From the NCBI GenBank assembly GCA_043739185.1, contig JAYUEN010000387.1, forward strand, positions 15,297 to 79,296: a stretch of 64,000 nt of DNA, given 5' to 3'. Positions within the stretch are counted from its first letter, which is position 1; each line of letters starts with the position of its first letter. The stretch comes from Bdellovibrionales bacterium. GTDB taxonomy: Bacteria > Bdellovibrionota > Bdellovibrionia > Bdellovibrionales > JAMPXM01. Under the pieces are notes generated by a model that searched no databases, was not told the origin of the DNA, and saw only the letters and a list, made by a program, of their open reading frames with translations. Positions 2,633 to 22,238 of this stretch are shown one piece after another. The position numbers and the translations under genes were made by a program.

Positions 2633-4090
2633 CTATTTAAACAATAATTGGCAAGAATTAGAAACAATAAATGAAGTCCTCGACCAAGGCATTTTTAATG
2701 GAGTCTTAGGTGCGAATTTGTGCTCCCAAAACTCAAGCATTGCTTTGCCATTTTGCTCCATTATTGCATCAACCGGAATAGGTCCCATATCAACTAAATA
2801 AGCAGTGCCGTCTCGAACCACAATATTGTCAGGAGCAATATCCAGTTTTATCAAACTCAAATTTGCCATCGCCAAAGCTTTGGAATGCAAATCAAGCACG
2901 GACTTCGCAACTCCTGCATCTAAATGGTCATGGGTTTTTATATAAGCCTCAAGGCTTGGTCCCTTAATGTATTCGCTTAATATCCATTGTCCCTCGGGGT
3001 CAAAAGCCAATATCTCAGGGCTATCAATTTGAAATTTCATCTTTGCCCAATGTTGTACGTTGACAATTCTTTTATTGGTTTCGCGACCCTTTTTATTGCG
3101 TGCCATTTTGATCGCAATTTCAACGCCATTTTTTTCAATTACAAATACATCGGCTTCAAGTCCACTGCCTAAATATTTTTTAACCGGAAAAATCTCCTCG
3201 CCGATTTTGACCGTCATTAAATTCTTGTGACGCTTTAATTTGACGACCATTGCCTTTGTATTTTCAAAGAGGCCGATGGATTTCAACATAGAAATTGCCT
3301 TTCGAGAGGTCCAATTTTTCAATCCAGACAAGGGTGTCGCATGATTATTGTCGAGAGTGTCGAGATACAATCCGCGGCCTAAAATGACCTCAATGCTACT
3401 CGGAGCAATTAGTTTTGAAAGTTCGCTCAATTTGAATTGAATTTCTGGTGAAGTTCGATCGGCGAAATATAAGTCAAGATTATGGTGAATATAGCTTCGC
3501 GCTTTTGAGGATGAAATTCCAGCAGGTCCTTCGGGCATAAGGTGCACATTTCGAGCCGCCAAATTTCTTGGGAGATGATAATTTTCGGCATGATCGCGGG
3601 GAACGACCAGAGTCTCATCAGGGTGAATGAGAAAAAGTAAATAAGGAAGCGAACTTTCGGCCACATCTTGGCCAACAACGAGGTCTATTTGTACGTTCGG
3701 ATTGATTTCGCGAATTTTTTTGTAGAAGGCATTAAATGGATTGAATCCCTGAGATAGGGCGGCCCATTCGCCATCGAGAGGATAAGTCAAATTGGGATGC
3801 CGATTTAGTGCGGCGTCGATCAGTTGAACTCTTACCTCAAATGGTTGTGGCTTTTTATGAACGGGGCTACCAGTTGGCAAAATGATCACTAAATCTGCGC
3901 CAGAGGCCTTTAAAGAAATTTCAGCAGTTTCAATATGGCCAAGACTTACGGGATCGTAAGTGCCTGGCATAATAAGAATTTTTTTTGCAGATTTAATTTT
4001 CTCATAATCAAGAGGTACGCCAAAGCTCAATGAACTAAATCCGAGAAAACATACGAGTAGGCTAGCTAAAAAAAATCCGAATGACTTCAT
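2633..4090 (-). CDS. Signal-peptide protein fusing a NadD-like nucleotidyltransferase domain to an atypical protein-kinase-like domain
   Basis: Signal peptide MKSFGFFLASLLVCFLGFSSLSFG. Adenylyltransferase motifs GTYDPVSLGH, PVHK, ISSSKAR. Kinase motifs LGSGLEADVF, IAIK, LDIAPDNIVV, LVDMG. Ends SCQLLFK. Confidence 0.75.
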   Translation of the reverse strand: MKSFGFFLASLLVCFLGFSSLSFGVPLDYEKIKSAKKILIMPGTYDPVSLGHIETAEISLKASGADLVIILPTGSPVHKKPQPFEVRVQLIDAALNRHPNLTYPLDGEWAALSQGFNPFNAFYKKIREINPNVQIDLVVGQDVAESSLPYLLFLIHPDETLVVPRDHAENYHLPRNLAARNVHLMPEGPAGISSSKARSYIHHNLDLYFADRTSPEIQFKLSELSKLIAPSSIEVILGRGLYLDTLDNNHATPLSGLKNWTSRKAISMLKSIGLFENTKAMVVKLKRHKNLMTVKIGEEIFPVKKYLGSGLEADVFVIEKNGVEIAIKMARNKKGRETNKRIVNVQHWAKMKFQIDSPEILAFDPEGQWILSEYIKGPSLEAYIKTHDHLDAGVAKSVLDLHSKALAMANLSLIKLDIAPDNIVVRDGTAYLVDMGPIPVDAIMEQNGKAMLEFWEHKFAPKTPLKMPWSRTSFIVSNSCQLLFK

Positions 4091-14505: not shown

Positions 14506-15123
14506 TTATTTTCCATCTACTTCGATTTGAGCTTTGATGTCATCGTCTGACATATGATCTTCACAATCGCTTGCCTCGTGTACGGCTTCAAAGCGTGAGC
14601 CTCTGAGTGAAGAGACTTTGTTGCTTGCAACCTTCATTAAAACCATTTTGCCTTTTTGCAAATGGGCGCCAATCATTTGGCAAGCTGTTTTTGACATACA
14701 GGCTGTCTTTGGATGGGAGTCGTCACTTGAAACACTTTGAATGACGGGTTTGACTGGAGAGCCTGAACCGTCTTCATCATCTTCTGAATTGCAAACTGAA
14801 GCGGATACTGGTGGTTTATTGGCGCACATTTTATTACCAGATAAAGAAGAGCTGTTTGATAAAATATGCAGTTCATCCTGATCGTCGGATTCTTGCTCAC
14901 CGATGCAGGTTAAGACACAAATTCCTTGATCAGAAGGAGGCGCTACAATTGGCGTGCTCCCAGGTGAGCCAGGTGAAGTTCCTGTACCTGTAACTCCGCC
15001 TTGAACAAGGGATTTACTGCTTATAGACGCAAAATTGACTTGTGAGCAGTTTTGGAACATTGAAAGCAGAGCAATGGCTGAGCCTGCCGCAACGAAGATA
15101 CGAGTTAATCCTGTCAATTTCAT
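14506..15123 (-). CDS. Cys-rich, acidic exported lipoprotein-like hypothetical protein
   Basis: Hydrophobic N-terminus ending MFQNC (FQNC-type lipobox seen in Bdellovibrionota); Gly/Thr/Ser/Pro linker; 8 Cys. Confidence 0.65.
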   Translation of the reverse strand: MKLTGLTRIFVAAGSAIALLSMFQNCSQVNFASISSKSLVQGGVTGTGTSPGSPGSTPIVAPPSDQGICVLTCIGEQESDDQDELHILSNSSSLSGNKMCANKPPVSASVCNSEDDEDGSGSPVKPVIQSVSSDDSHPKTACMSKTACQMIGAHLQKGKMVLMKVASNKVSSLRGSRFEAVHEASDCEDHMSDDDIKAQIEVDGK

Positions 15124-15279: not shown

Positions 15280-16392
15280 CTAGTTTTTTAAATAAAGGAC
15301 GGCATTTTCTGCGGGAGACAATTCAGGGTCTGATATATGTTTAAAGGCCTCTTCGAGCTGTCCGCTTCTAAATGCACTAATAATTGCGGGATCAATATAA
15401 GAATTAAGAGCAACTGACGGCGTATTGTGAAGGCGCTCAGAGGCCTTTACAGCTGCGAGCTTTATGGCCTCATCTTGATTAGGCTCCTCTTGTGGGCCAA
15501 GAGAATGTAGCGTTTCAACGGCTTGAGTCGTTCCGACCCAAGTGCGAAAATCCTTGGCAGAGAATTGCGTTCCAATATGGTTTTTAATGTACTGATTAAC
15601 CTCAGGTGCTTTTACGTCAAACAGCCTTTCATCCGATCCTTTGGTGCTAACTTGGCCCTTCAAAACGCGGGCAATTGCTTTGTCATCGACGATGATATCT
15701 TGGGGAATTCCCTCTTTGGCAATGAATTGAAAGCGCACTTTGGCTCCGCGAATTTGAACATGGTCCGCGCGCAAAGTTGTTAACCCAAAGGAAGGAAATT
15801 CGCCTTGGGCGTATTTTTCTCCGCCAATGCGAATTCCGCCAACTTCAAGCAATCGAACGACCGCTGCAATTTGTGAGTCCTGAAAACGCGCTGAACCTTG
15901 CAAATCTCGAGAAACAGCAATTCGTAGTTTTGAAATAGCCTCTCCAAATTCCTTCATTCTCTCAAATTTAGCGGCGGCAAGTACCTTTTCATTCCAGTCC
16001 TCATGGTATCGATATTGTGCGCGAGCACGGCTATCTAGGGCCCTTGCCTGAATATGGGCAAGCGGGTCTTGAGCAATCCAAACTTGCGAATATCCGGGTG
16101 GAATTTTCAGTTCATTGATTCGTCTCAGGGTACTTGGATCTTGAACCACTTCACCTTGGTCAGTTTTATAAATAAAACTAACTTTATCTTCGGGCTTCGG
16201 CTGAGCAGCATTTTCGCGAATATAGCCTTTCCCGGGTGTCAACGAGTAGTGTAGACCTGAGGCCAAAGCCAATTGAACTGAGATCTCATGTTTGCTTAGG
16301 CTTTTAAATAGTGAAAGACAAGCGACGGGTGAGGCGAAACTCACCTGGCCAGAAAACACTAAGAGAAGGCTTAGAAATAAAAAACTTCGCAT
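15280..16392 (-). CDS. DNA topoisomerase IB (bacterial/poxvirus type) with an N-terminal signal peptide
   Basis: RAQYRYH, GIRIGGEKY (Arg), GLTTL, FIAKEG (Lys), KDFRTW (Arg), HNTPSVALNSYIDP (Asn, Tyr). Start reassigned to ATG 16392 (MRSFLFLSLLLVFSGQVSFA); the longer tracked ORF overlaps dbpA head to head. Confidence 0.88.
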   Translation of the reverse strand: MRSFLFLSLLLVFSGQVSFASPVACLSLFKSLSKHEISVQLALASGLHYSLTPGKGYIRENAAQPKPEDKVSFIYKTDQGEVVQDPSTLRRINELKIPPGYSQVWIAQDPLAHIQARALDSRARAQYRYHEDWNEKVLAAAKFERMKEFGEAISKLRIAVSRDLQGSARFQDSQIAAVVRLLEVGGIRIGGEKYAQGEFPSFGLTTLRADHVQIRGAKVRFQFIAKEGIPQDIIVDDKAIARVLKGQVSTKGSDERLFDVKAPEVNQYIKNHIGTQFSAKDFRTWVGTTQAVETLHSLGPQEEPNQDEAIKLAAVKASERLHNTPSVALNSYIDPAIISAFRSGQLEEAFKHISDPELSPAENAVLYLKN

Positions 16393-16591
16393 GATAAAGC
16401 CTGTTTGCGATCTCGATGCCAAAGGAGAGTTAAAATCGGAATCATTATAAAGCAGCGCAGGCCCCCTCGGCTTAAATTTAACTTTTTGTGTGACAAAATT
16501 CGTCGCTTGCAAAGATATTTTTTTCAATTTGGGTTTGCCTCTTCCCAGGTGCCTTTGGTCTTGATAATGATGAGAGTCAAAGAGGCAAACA

Positions 16592-17983
16592 TTGAATTCA
16601 TCCCTATTTAGTTCCCTTCCTATATCTGAAAAAATTTTGAAAGTAGTAGAGGAATTGGGATTTAAAGCCATGACTCCAATTCAAGAGCAGGCTCTGCCAA
16701 TTTTACTCAGCGGACGCGATCTCATTGGTCAATCGAAAACAGGAAGTGGCAAGACCGCTGCTTTTGCGATACCGATTTTGCAAAAAATCGATCTTTCAAA
16801 TCGCAGTCTTCAGGCAATTGTTATTTGTCCTACCAGAGAATTGAGTACGCAAGTGACGGGTGAATTTCGCAAGCTTGCCCGTAAGTTAGAGGGGCTTCAG
16901 GTTTTGAATTTATCGGGTGGACAGCCCGCAAGACCGCAAATCGATGCGCTTCGTTTGGGAATTCATATTGCGGTAGGAACTTCAGGTCGAATTCTCGATC
17001 TACTCGATCGTAGAGAGCTGGATTTTAGGAGCCTTAAAACATTGGTTTTAGATGAAGCGGATAAGCTTCTTGAATTGGGTTTTCAGGATGAAATCTCTGC
17101 AATTCTAGAGGCTCCAACGGCAAAGCGACAGACGCTTTTTATCTCAGCAACTTTTCCGGATGAGATAAAAAGCTTGAGCCTGCAATACCAAAAAAACCCT
17201 GTTCATCTTCGCATTGAGGAGGCGCTTGAAGGCGCAAATCTGATTGAAGAAATTGCCTATGAAGTGGGTGAAGAAGAAAAGTCAGACTTGCTATTACGAG
17301 TCTTGCAGCAACATCCCGCAAAGTCCGTACTTATTTTTTGCAATCAAAAGACCACAGTCGATGAGTTGATTCATTTAATAGAAAAAGACGAAGTGAGTTG
17401 TGCGGCATTGCATGGCAATTTAGAACAACGCGATCGACAACTAGTGATGGCGATGTTTCGTAATGGCAGTTATCGAATTTTAGTGGCGACAGATGTTGCG
17501 GCTCGAGGAATTGACATTGATCACCTAGATTTGGTGATCAATTATGATTTTCCGATGAATGCAGAGGTTTATATACATCGAATTGGGCGAACCGGAAGGG
17601 CGGGTCGCGAGGGCGTTGCCGTCACCTTGGTAAAGCAGAATGAAGACTTGAAATTATTTGAAATTGAAAAATCTCGAGACAAACGACTCAGTCGTCCCAA
17701 CTTGGGTTTCAAAAACCAACATGGCTTAAGTTCCTACTATCGCGAATCGTCAATGAAAACCCTTTGGATTTCGGGTGGTCGTAAAGACAAGCTAAGACCA
17801 GGAGATATTTTAGGGGCCCTGACAAGAGAAGGTGCGGGTTTGAAATCTTCAGAAATTGGCAAGATTGATGTCTTTGATAATATGTCCCTCGTGGCAATTG
17901 CCAGTAAAGAAGCCGGCCGAGCATTTGAAGAATTGCGTGTAGGTAAAATTAAGGGCCGAAAATTTCAAGTGCGTTTGATATGA
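16592..17983 (+). CDS. dbpA: ATP-dependent DEAD-box RNA helicase DbpA
   Basis: TGSGKT, PTREL, DEAD, SAT, TDVAARGID, HRIGRTGRAG, and a C-terminal DbpA RNA-binding domain (GGRKDKLRPGDILGALT). Confidence 0.93.
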   Translation: MNSSLFSSLPISEKILKVVEELGFKAMTPIQEQALPILLSGRDLIGQSKTGSGKTAAFAIPILQKIDLSNRSLQAIVICPTRELSTQVTGEFRKLARKLEGLQVLNLSGGQPARPQIDALRLGIHIAVGTSGRILDLLDRRELDFRSLKTLVLDEADKLLELGFQDEISAILEAPTAKRQTLFISATFPDEIKSLSLQYQKNPVHLRIEEALEGANLIEEIAYEVGEEEKSDLLLRVLQQHPAKSVLIFCNQKTTVDELIHLIEKDEVSCAALHGNLEQRDRQLVMAMFRNGSYRILVATDVAARGIDIDHLDLVINYDFPMNAEVYIHRIGRTGRAGREGVAVTLVKQNEDLKLFEIEKSRDKRLSRPNLGFKNQHGLSSYYRESSMKTLWISGGRKDKLRPGDILGALTREGAGLKSSEIGKIDVFDNMSLVAIASKEAGRAFEELRVGKIKGRKFQVRLI

Positions 17984-20675: not shown

Positions 20676-22238
20676 ATGGTGTTTTCGCAGCAACAATTAA
20701 GACTAGTTCAATTCACGTTTGCAATTGTTCTCTCCTCTAGCTTGGGTGTGAGCATGGCCTTCGCTGGCGGCGACCAATGCGAAAGCATCTTTGTTTCTAC
20801 AAAGAGCAAAAGACAAATTGGCGTGAGCGAAGATTTTGTTGCCAAAATGCAGTCTCGTAGGCGCTCTGCTGCAGACAAAATGTTACAAAAATTTACCACG
20901 GAGAAGGGTCTTGCAGCACCCATGAACACGAGCCCCAAACATGACAATAACTATAGTTTCGAACTCCCGGAAGGTACTATAAAGGATCAGCAAAGGTCAG
21001 GCCGTTGTTGGATATTTGCTTCTCTCACGGCCATTGAAAATTTTTATTTAGGCAAAGGCAATTTAATGCCAGACGCCGAGTTTTCAAGAACCTATCTGCA
21101 ATTTTTTAATATGCTCGAGCGTTCAAGCTCGCATTTAGAAAAGGTAATTGATTTAAGAAGAAACTCACAGCGCATTAGCAGCTCTACAATCTTACAAAGG
21201 ATTGCACCTAAGATCGCGGACGGTGGCTATGTTGAAGATATTATCTTTTTAATTAAGAAATACGGCTTGGTCACCACAAGTGCAATGCCCGAAACTCTTA
21301 ATTCATTGAACACCGACCTATTGTTGGCTGAATTGAATTCTTATTTACAAGTTAAAAGTTATGAGATGTGGAATTTGTCTGAAAACTTCGACTCAGAGGC
21401 GCGTGCACTTCATGATCGTATCGTGAGGGGTCAGGCTGAAAACACCACAAAATATGATAAGGTGAGTTTGCAGGCCCTAAGCGAAGCTCAATTGCAAATA
21501 TTAGAAGCGAAAAAGGAAGAGATATTAGGCGGAGTCTGGTTGATTCTTGAAAAAGCTCTGGGAACACCGCCGAAAACATTCACCGCTAAAGTACCAGTGA
21601 CCAATCCCAAGACGGGCGTTGCTCAAACTAAAATTCGCAAATTTGAGCCGCAAAAATTTGTGACCGACTATATGAAATTTAATCCTGAGGATTGGATCAA
21701 TGTTTCTAATTTGAGAAATCGTCCTCGTGATCAAGTTTATCAAGTTAAATACCAAGACATGAACCGTGTGATACGAAGACTCAATTTAGATCCGGTACGA
21801 ATGATGAATTTGGTGAAAGCACAATTAAAAGCGGGTATGCCAGTACCGTTCGATTCGAACTTTGGCCCAGGAGTCAATCGCAAGACAGGTGATATGGAGC
21901 CTGGAACCGATGACTTAAAGGGAATGTTTCCTTATAAACAAGGCCAAGCGCCTAGGCGCTTGAGTAAATCAGAATTGGATATTTTAGGAATTTTAACCGC
22001 TGATCACGAAACGGTTTTCATGGGATATGATCAACCAGAAGGATATGCGAATCCAATAAAGTTCAAGGTTGAAAATTCATGGAGTGATCAATATGGCAAC
22101 GGCGGGAACTTCAACCTATCGGCGCAATGGTTTGATTTGTATGTAGACGGGATTATGATTCATAAATCAATGCTATCTCCAGAGGAGCTTGCGATTTTCA
22201 ATGGCAAGCCTATCATTTTAAAAGCAACTAATGAGTGA
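20676..22238 (+). CDS. C1B-family cysteine aminopeptidase (PepC/bleomycin hydrolase-like) with signal peptide
   Basis: DQQRSGRCWIFAS (Gln, Cys), ADHETVFMG (His), KVENSWS (Asn). SD GGAGGA before ATG 20676; signal peptide ending MAFA. Confidence 0.88.
   Translation: MVFSQQQLRLVQFTFAIVLSSSLGVSMAFAGGDQCESIFVSTKSKRQIGVSEDFVAKMQSRRRSAADKMLQKFTTEKGLAAPMNTSPKHDNNYSFELPEGTIKDQQRSGRCWIFASLTAIENFYLGKGNLMPDAEFSRTYLQFFNMLERSSSHLEKVIDLRRNSQRISSSTILQRIAPKIADGGYVEDIIFLIKKYGLVTTSAMPETLNSLNTDLLLAELNSYLQVKSYEMWNLSENFDSEARALHDRIVRGQAENTTKYDKVSLQALSEAQLQILEAKKEEILGGVWLILEKALGTPPKTFTAKVPVTNPKTGVAQTKIRKFEPQKFVTDYMKFNPEDWINVSNLRNRPRDQVYQVKYQDMNRVIRRLNLDPVRMMNLVKAQLKAGMPVPFDSNFGPGVNRKTGDMEPGTDDLKGMFPYKQGQAPRRLSKSELDILGILTADHETVFMGYDQPEGYANPIKFKVENSWSDQYGNGGNFNLSAQWFDLYVDGIMIHKSMLSPEELAIFNGKPIILKATNE

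Follow-up and report, generated by a model that had tools for sequence, protein, structure and literature searches.

Does a bacterial DNA topoisomerase that is made with a secretory signal do its work outside the cell that encodes it, and if so, on whose DNA? The question is raised by a gene at positions 15280–16392 (minus strand) of a 64,000-nucleotide stretch (hereafter the window) of contig JAYUEN010000387.1 from a Bdellovibrionales bacterium (assembly GCA_043739185.1), which encodes a type IB topoisomerase (TopIB). Enzymes of this type relax DNA independently of ATP via a 3'-phosphotyrosine intermediate and need no metal. To our knowledge, every topoisomerase studied to date manages DNA of its own cell or virus. 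The TopIB of the window very probably leaves the producing cell, because its signal peptide and a Cys that follows are conserved in a diverse subfamily, the signal-bearing members cluster in a tree that excludes their N-termini, the proteins are depleted in Cys, and a start ahead of the hydrophobic segment is forced in orthologs; the export proposed in a first-pass annotation of this DNA is thereby upheld. The Cys belongs to a short terminal motif, C-x-x-L-F, that recurs genome-wide on other proteins with predicted signal peptides.

Identity of the Enzyme

The 15280–16392 gene is a bacterial type IB topoisomerase by every sequence and fold comparison made. Translation from the ATG at 16392 gives a 370-residue precursor (P0001; 370 codons and a stop), a coding sequence supported by the list of open reading frames (ORFs), its translation, and two Pfam domains; the longest open frame at the locus is 15280–16671 (minus strand; 463 codons). 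The bacterial TopIB N-terminal domain (Top1B_N_bact, PF21338; E = 2e-15, 56.6 bits vs. a cut-off of 27) spans residues 73–117 (16042–16176, minus strand; coordinates converted from the 463-residue ORF), and the catalytic core (Topoisom_I, PF01028; E = 6.8e-29, 101 bits vs. a cut-off of 23.7) spans residues 140–327 (15412–15975, minus strand). The full-length protein has no match in NCBIfam. A whole-genome search identified this gene as the sole TopIB of the 4.85-Mb host genome (540 contigs, 97.7% complete, 41.8% guanine plus cytosine (GC)).

Five residues are invariant in an alignment of 122 sequences: R188 (IRIG; codon 15829–15831), K226 (AKEG; 15715–15717), R283 (DFRTW; 15544–15546), N323 (HNTP; 15424–15426), and the active-site tyrosine Y332 (NSYIDP; 15397–15399), all on the minus strand. 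The catalytic set is intact, as the first-pass annotation had stated, and the enzyme is predicted to be catalytically competent. By sequence, the closest solved structure is that of Deinococcus radiodurans TopIB (2f4q; E = 6e-39, with a fold match of E = 1e-18), to which the alignment begins only at query residue 67. The tyrosine of its SYICP motif aligns with Y332, and R188 and K226 match its chain residues R137 and K174 (counted along the alignment), the catalytic Arg and Lys described for that enzyme. An AlphaFold2 model computed from the alignment of 122 relatives (mean predicted local distance difference test score 91.9) has the two-domain, C-shaped clamp of TopIB, and its top Foldseek matches (2f4q, 3m4a, and variola TopIB–DNA complexes) all have a probability of 1.00.

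Predicted Export Signal and Translation Start

The precursor begins with a positively charged n-region (MRS), an h-region of 10 residues (FLFLSLLLVF; mean Kyte–Doolittle value 3.08), and a c-region (SGQVSFA) whose −3 and −1 positions are Ser and Ala; SPVA-C25-LSLF comes next. These are the features of a substrate of Sec and signal peptidase I (positive n-region, h-region of 7–15 residues, and small residues at −3 and −1), by which a signal peptide is predicted at residues 1–21 (16330–16392, minus strand), with cleavage between A21 and S22; the prediction was made from the n/h/c and (−3, −1) rules together with conservation. The predicted mature protein has 349 residues, an isoelectric point of 8.6, and a single Cys, C25, which stands four residues past the predicted cleavage site in the sequence C25-L-S-L-F (16306–16320, minus strand) and is invariant in the signal-bearing clade. 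Both the classic Sec signal and the CxxLF motif had been claimed from the letters alone; the former agrees with the rules and is kept in close homologs, and the latter is correctly placed and is enriched above shuffles across the genome (see below). In the AlphaFold2 model, residues 2–16 are helical and residues 17–33 form low-confidence coil, which locates the Cys motif in a flexible tail. Two other classes of signal were considered and rejected: twin-arginine translocation (the n-region M-R-S has one Arg and no twin-arginine motif S/T-R-R-x-F-L-K) and lipoprotein export (P-V-A at −3 to −1 of the Cys does not fit the lipobox [LVI][ASTVI][GAS]-C).

Two longer forms of the protein were likewise rejected. 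A start at 16671 (463 residues) falls inside the divergent gene for the DbpA helicase and adds an extension that is not conserved; a start at TTG 16527 (415 residues) also adds a non-conserved extension, and is blocked by a stop in the same-genus ortholog L083. In L083, the ATG ahead of the hydrophobic segment is preceded, 11 codons away, by a stop, which precludes any start ahead of this ATG. The 199-bp intergenic region between TopIB and dbpA (16393–16591) holds the non-conserved alternative TTG starts 16527, 16512, and 16422, and the upstream stretches of P0002, P0003, and P0007 are mutually unrelated. Every upstream start would keep the hydrophobic segment in the protein.

Some observations count against a cleaved, exported TopIB. 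The signal peptide is judged by rules rather than by a trained predictor. The database gene call (P0002, 415 residues) begins at TTG 16527, behind a better Shine–Dalgarno-like sequence (GGAAGAGG); it puts the signal peptide 45 residues inside the protein, such that automatic annotation would miss the export signal, and a 45-residue n-region, with the same export topology, would make cleavage less certain. The TTG codons at residues 41 and 43 could yield a minor cytoplasmic isoform, and the TopIB copy of the same-genus genome G003 has no signal and tag region. This G003 copy (L084, G003:C308, ~1372–1520) also lacks the first helix, with a stop 13 codons before the conserved LHYSL; its remaining ORF begins at TTG, and reflects either a real 5' deletion or an assembly artifact. 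A database sequence that is 90% identical to it (P0126) is full length.

These points bear on whether the protein might be an ordinary cytoplasmic TopIB made from an internal start, with the signal-like segment untranslated or present only in a minor isoform. In-frame starts do exist downstream (GTG at residues 12 and 17, in addition to the TTG codons), a start near residue 41 would still give a complete fold, given where the D. radiodurans alignment begins, and the G003 copy is without the signal region. However, n/h/c anatomy and the Cys are kept in more than 40 diverged sequences with otherwise unalignable N-termini, the mature protein is Cys-depleted in the manner typical of extracytoplasmic proteins, and the cytoplasmic TopIBs that other genera of the family carry stand apart from the signal-bearing subfamily. 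We therefore regard a cytoplasmic product as very improbable. Translation from downstream of the hydrophobic segment, which the first-pass annotation had named as the finding that would overturn its reading, is contradicted by this conservation among homologs.

The Signal-Bearing Subfamily

The close homologs (38–56% identity; P0003, P0004, P0005, P0007–P0010, P0012, P0126, and P0127) each have their own n/h/c signal, in which an AXA-like site is followed 0–5 residues later by Cys, and the signal sequences themselves are mutually unalignable. N-terminal hydrophobicity is bimodal among the 122 database relatives, with 13 having both signal and Cys and 109 having neither; in all 13 hydrophobic N-termini, the Cys lies 0–5 residues past the AXA-like site. 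A maximum-likelihood tree calculated from only those columns after residue 42 places the 13 signal-bearers on one side of a branch with a Shimodaira–Hasegawa-like approximate likelihood ratio test (SH-aLRT) value of 95, and within them a core clade of 11 has an SH-aLRT value of 100. The phylogenetic comparison with cytoplasmic TopIBs that had been suggested as a check thus finds the signal-bearers clustered apart from the cytoplasmic copies. The median number of Cys is 1–2 in signal-bearers vs. 4 in the remaining TopIBs.

For a broader sample, 1.84 billion cluster representatives were searched exhaustively with HMMER, yielding 8765 TopIB relatives. Among the best 147 of these (50%-identity representatives), about 35 have a signal peptide, a fraction that is inflated because the query carries a signal, so that the absolute number is the robust figure; all of these save two mis-detections have a Cys 3–15 residues past the h-region. 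On a 155-sequence tree, the signal trait needs 9 changes, compared with 38 when labels are shuffled, and well-supported branches force at least three changes of the trait.

Conservation of signal and Cys, clustering on the N-terminus-free tree, and Cys depletion together indicate that the signal is not a start-codon artifact; with the loss of a loop in the core clade, they are, at the level of sequence, the mark of a subfamily long resident outside the cytoplasm. TopIB is patchily distributed in the group, being present in 14 of 61 relatives and in 23 of 401 genomes of the phylum. When N-termini in the phylum sample were read locus by locus (the alignment start of the query being an unreliable flag), signal-plus-Cys TopIBs were found in 10 of the 23 TopIB-positive genomes of Bdellovibrionota, representing at least four families; other genera of the host's own family have ordinary cytoplasmic TopIBs. 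No signal peptide was seen on TopIB in any of 80 named genomes of other phyla (among the matches listed, 34–42% identity), and no signal-type TopIB among the inspected copies of Myxococcota (10) and Bacteroidota (5). As judged from these N-termini, signal-bearing TopIB is frequent in Bdellovibrionota and absent from every inspected copy of other phyla. For the neighboring DbpA, all named best matches (55–61% identity) are from Bdellovibrio, Pseudobdellovibrionaceae, or Bdellovibrionaceae, which places the uncultured host within Bdellovibrionales but not in the genus Bdellovibrio.

The nearest characterized relatives, D. radiodurans TopIB (2f4q, 3m4a) and the Pseudomonas aeruginosa enzyme, share with the window enzyme the two-domain clamp, the Pfam domains, and the Arg–Lys–Arg–Asn–Tyr site; it should relax DNA by their ATP-free, 3'-phosphotyrosine mechanism. 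Known bacterial TopIBs are cytoplasmic and signal-free, whereas the subfamily described here has a Sec-type signal, a post-signal Cys, and fewer Cys overall, and its core clade has neither the 8-residue loop of the ELFQYVD region nor the Cys within NTPxVCR. The model superposes best on the DNA-bound closed clamp of poxvirus TopIB (variola/vaccinia; 3igc, 2h7f; target-normalized TM-score 0.75–0.78), although sequence identity is 18%, and the viral enzyme has no signal peptide and has His in place of Asn. Poxvirus TopIB is packaged in virions and is sequence-specific. The enzyme is of a known family; the export signal, post-signal Cys, Cys depletion, loop deletion, and shared tag set it apart. 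In the literature, we found nothing on an exported, periplasmic, or secreted TopIB, nor on a Cys sorting signal in Bdellovibrio or the tag described below. Export of a conserved and diverse TopIB subfamily would put topoisomerase chemistry to a new use.

A Terminal Cysteine Tag

The C-x-x-L-F sequence that follows the TopIB signal is not confined to TopIB. A scan of the whole genome covering 1395 ORFs with signal-like N-termini found C..[LI]F within 2–15 residues past the h-region window in 31 ORFs, vs. 3.9 ± 1.9 in shuffles, and the rate of the motif elsewhere in the same proteins predicts only 2.2 such matches. Two of the 31 are false, leaving about 29 N-tagged proteins. Their spacing is tight (mode 9–11 residues past the h-region, or 2–5 past the AXA site), with the consensus A(−5..−3), C, [ERQ], [DSA], L/I, F, and "LF" occurs 25 times as the dipeptide at +3/+4 after the early Cys, whereas the next commonest dipeptide occurs six times. 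Among the final 10 residues, the motif is found in 21 ORFs (vs. 2.4 in shuffles), most of which have a signal peptide at the opposite end. Both the N-terminal and C-terminal counts are ~8-fold above shuffles, and there are ~50 tagged proteins altogether. In 16 of the 29 N-tagged proteins, the mature chain has no Cys other than that of the tag. Outside the tag, N-tagged proteins have 0.19 Cys per 100 residues vs. 1.16 in other signal-bearing ORFs, a six-fold depletion. From this pattern, the tag is likely to be a functional sorting or tethering signal.

Besides that of TopIB (16306–16320, minus strand), the window has three instances of the tag, at 20778–20792 (plus strand), ~2636–2653 (minus strand), and ~41273–41290 (plus strand). 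Tagged genes cluster on several contigs: C148 (three in tandem), C398 (three), C50 (two), and C387 (five, including the four in the window). The three consecutive tagged genes of C148 encode proteins of 451–529 residues that have no known domain and have the look of coiled-coil paralogs. The tag also turned up elsewhere in the order: 187 kb sampled from G038, a genome that belongs to another family, contain four tags at N-termini and two at C-termini, and the TopIB of G038 is among the tagged proteins. None was found in 800 kb sampled from G153, a complete Bdellovibrio-like genome with 49.9% GC. In G038, two adjacent paralogs of ~945 residues (L172–L175; contig G038:C4, minus strand, starts 52413 and 55271 of the reverse-complemented contig) each have a signal peptide and the tag (KPQ-CRDLF and EPQ-CHKLF).

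Assignment of the tag to a described class of signal was attempted and rejected in each case. A lipobox does not fit the residues at −3 to −1, which are often charged or polar (DRC, SEC, NRC, FDC), or the position of the Cys 9–11 residues beyond the h-region and after the AXA site; ordinary lipoboxes are present in the same genome (LLTS-C). A CaaX box, with its Cys exactly four residues from the C-terminus, does not fit C-terminal copies in which the Cys is 5–9 residues from the end, or the ~29 copies that are N-terminal. As for exosortase-type/MYXO-CTERM, CGP-CTERM, and GlyGly-CTERM signals, the C-terminal copies end 0–4 residues past the Phe with no hydrophobic helix after the tag, and the tag of TopIB is N-terminal; the tag peptides gave no match to NCBIfam at E up to 10.

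Short terminal sorting signals are known from several systems, including the N-terminal 22-residue segment of the curli protein CsgA, the export signal after the +1 Cys of Bacteroidota lipoproteins, and MYXO-CTERM and CGP-CTERM. The CxxLF tag resembles these in being a short terminal motif on Sec-exported but unrelated cargo, with an invariant Cys that is central in some of them. It differs in that the same five residues would serve at either end of the protein, and in that no transmembrane helix or basic tail comes after the C-terminal copies; moreover, as a lipobox is lacking, the tag Cys does not occupy the +1 position of a lipoprotein. The tag system may itself be new.

The position of the tag relative to the h-region raises the alternative that the N-terminus is not cleaved but anchors TopIB in the inner membrane, with the catalytic domain in the periplasm and the Cys tag at the membrane surface. 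The fixed distance between Cys and h-region (mode 9–11) would suit an enzyme acting at the membrane surface, and the 45-residue n-region obtained from the TTG 16527 start would be atypical of a cleaved signal. Such an anchor is nevertheless improbable: the h-region has only ~10 residues, nearly all homologs keep small residues at −3 and −1, the upstream extension lacks conservation and, in L083, could not be translated, and the tag is also present at C-termini that lie a long way from membrane segments.

The single Cys could also be read as a tether for a protein that is exported but no longer a topoisomerase, namely a surface protein that binds or traps DNA (for example, as a covalent anchor or adhesin) and is held on the cell via the tag. 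A lone reactive Cys in a flexible tail would suit this role, and the covalent 3'-phosphotyrosyl adduct of TopIB could capture DNA. We consider it highly unlikely, as all five catalytic residues, including those for religation, are invariant across the exported subfamily, and the protein is a plain two-domain clamp without an adhesin-type extra domain or repeat.

Tagged Proteins and the Site of Action

Most tagged proteins have no Pfam domain. Those that are recognizable comprise, in addition to TopIB, two papain/PepC-like peptidases, a GNAT acetyltransferase, a PLD-like protein, a polysaccharide lyase, an M48-like peptidase, a calcineurin-like phosphoesterase, an AAA+ ATPase, a circularly permuted ATP-grasp protein, a NadD-like nucleotidyltransferase fused to a kinase-like domain, and a fused EutB–EutC ethanolamine ammonia-lyase. 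Three of these are encoded in the window: the NadD/kinase-like fusion (2633–4090, minus strand; PF01467 and a weak PF00069) and the EutB–EutC fusion (38969–41293, plus strand), both of which have a signal peptide and a C-terminal tag, and a PepC/bleomycin-hydrolase-like C1 peptidase (20676–22238, plus strand), which has a signal peptide followed by the tag (GGDQ-CESIF). All six orthologs of the PepC-like peptidase (47–72% identity) have a signal and C-x-[DN]-[LMA]-F; distantly related PepC proteins are instead cytoplasmic, the same pattern of recruitment as for TopIB.

The NadD/kinase-like and EutB–EutC fusions are cofactor-dependent and should not work in the periplasm. More generally, the tagged cargo includes enzymes that need ATP, acetyl-CoA, or adenosylcobalamin, which are unavailable in the periplasm or medium, and these needs would point to the cytoplasm of another cell as the destination, as with the effectors of other secretion systems. 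Extreme Cys depletion is seen in proteins that stay unfolded to cross the outer membrane, and the Cys depletion of the tagged cargo would fit unfolded passage across a further membrane.

The same evidence can be set against the alternative proposal that the exported TopIB has its substrate in the periplasm of the producer or in the surrounding medium, either as extracellular DNA (of biofilm matrix or lysed cells) or as incoming DNA, and thereby aids nutrient scavenging or DNA uptake. A Sec signal alone reaches only the periplasm, TopIB could work there since it needs neither ATP nor metal, no dedicated secretion genes adjoin the TopIB gene, and the tagged polysaccharide lyase and peptidases would also work extracellularly. 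However, the tagged AAA+, kinase/nucleotidyltransferase, ATP-grasp, GNAT, and EutBC proteins cannot work without ATP, acetyl-CoA, or cobalamin; there is no evident benefit from relaxing linear or nicked extracellular DNA; and the strong Cys depletion of the cargo would be expected of proteins that cross a further membrane unfolded. On these grounds, we judge action in the periplasm or medium to be unlikely.

We favor, on balance, an explanation in which a Sec-exported, tagged, and active TopIB reaches the DNA of prey. The unfolded precursor would cross the inner membrane of the producer via Sec, by which the producer chromosome would never be exposed to the enzyme, and no immunity protein would be needed. 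Cleavage by signal peptidase I after A21 would release the 349-residue, cofactor-free enzyme with its flexible tail (SPVA-C-LSLF), one case of the terminal tag common to ~50 exported, Cys-poor proteins. The tag would most likely act through its thiol, in sorting, tethering, or hand-over for passage beyond the periplasm, and the most likely destination of TopIB would be the prey cytoplasm, reached with the rest of the tagged cargo. There, TopIB would clamp duplex DNA, form a 3'-phosphotyrosyl nick, and relax supercoils without an energy source; the prey would lose the negative superhelicity needed for transcription and replication, and its nucleoid would be decompacted and opened for degradation.

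The last of these steps, action on prey DNA inside the prey, had been proposed in the first-pass annotation; we put it at slightly under an even chance. Its support is indirect, namely a Bdellovibrionales host, the frequency of exported TopIBs in the phylum and their absence among the inspected copies of other phyla, and the cofactor-needing tagged cargo. The nucleases that Bdellovibrio bacteriovorus exports to degrade prey DNA offer a parallel, in that they are signal-peptide-bearing, DNA-acting enzymes of a predatory lineage that work outside the predator cytoplasm; they differ in being hydrolases, and the CxxLF tag is absent from the Bdellovibrio-like sample. A still broader proposal is that the CxxLF tag marks a previously unrecognized sorting or delivery route in non-Bdellovibrio members of Bdellovibrionales, which would carry ~50 Sec-exported, Cys-poor enzymes through further membranes to the cytoplasm of another cell, with TopIB as the first translocated topoisomerase effector, disabling the prey chromosome by energy-free relaxation. 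We offer this only tentatively, and think it rather doubtful in its entirety.

Several points weigh against delivery into prey. Beyond the closest lineages, exported TopIBs conserve only the Cys and not the xxLF of the tag. No secretion machinery is linked to the TopIB gene, and no partner of the tag was identified. The predatory lifestyle of the host is inferred from taxonomy only. Among the sequencing runs searched, the TopIB gene occurs only in DNA runs from sediment metagenomes and in no RNA run.

TopIB would be unusually suited to extracytoplasmic work, as it requires no ATP, metal, or partner, and as export by Sec spares the chromosome of the producer. If it does act on prey DNA, a topological step would be added to the take-over and dismantling of the prey nucleoid by predators. 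The shared Cys tag, in turn, would give a handle on how predators outside Bdellovibrio choose and move their hydrolytic and effector proteins, and defines a candidate effector list of ~50 proteins, most of them without known domains.

Gene Neighborhood

TopIB is transcribed divergently from dbpA, and the same divergent arrangement is found in L083/L098 and L099. Promoter and terminator scans around TopIB returned nothing above shuffles. On the other side, 156 bp downstream of TopIB, lies a gene (14506–15123, minus strand) for an acidic, Cys-rich, lipoprotein-like protein of 205 residues (box LLSMFQN-C), which has no Pfam or NCBIfam match. Homologs of this protein (44–51% identity) are encoded directly after TopIB in L098 and L099, such that the trio of dbpA, TopIB, and the 205-residue protein is kept in three genomes (L098, L099, and the window); the gene is absent at more distant TopIB loci, and a functional link between the two proteins is uncertain. 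The 205-residue protein has a conserved box (LLS-x-FQN-C-SQVNF), in which Asn at −1 of the apparent lipobox is unusual, together with six further invariant Cys.

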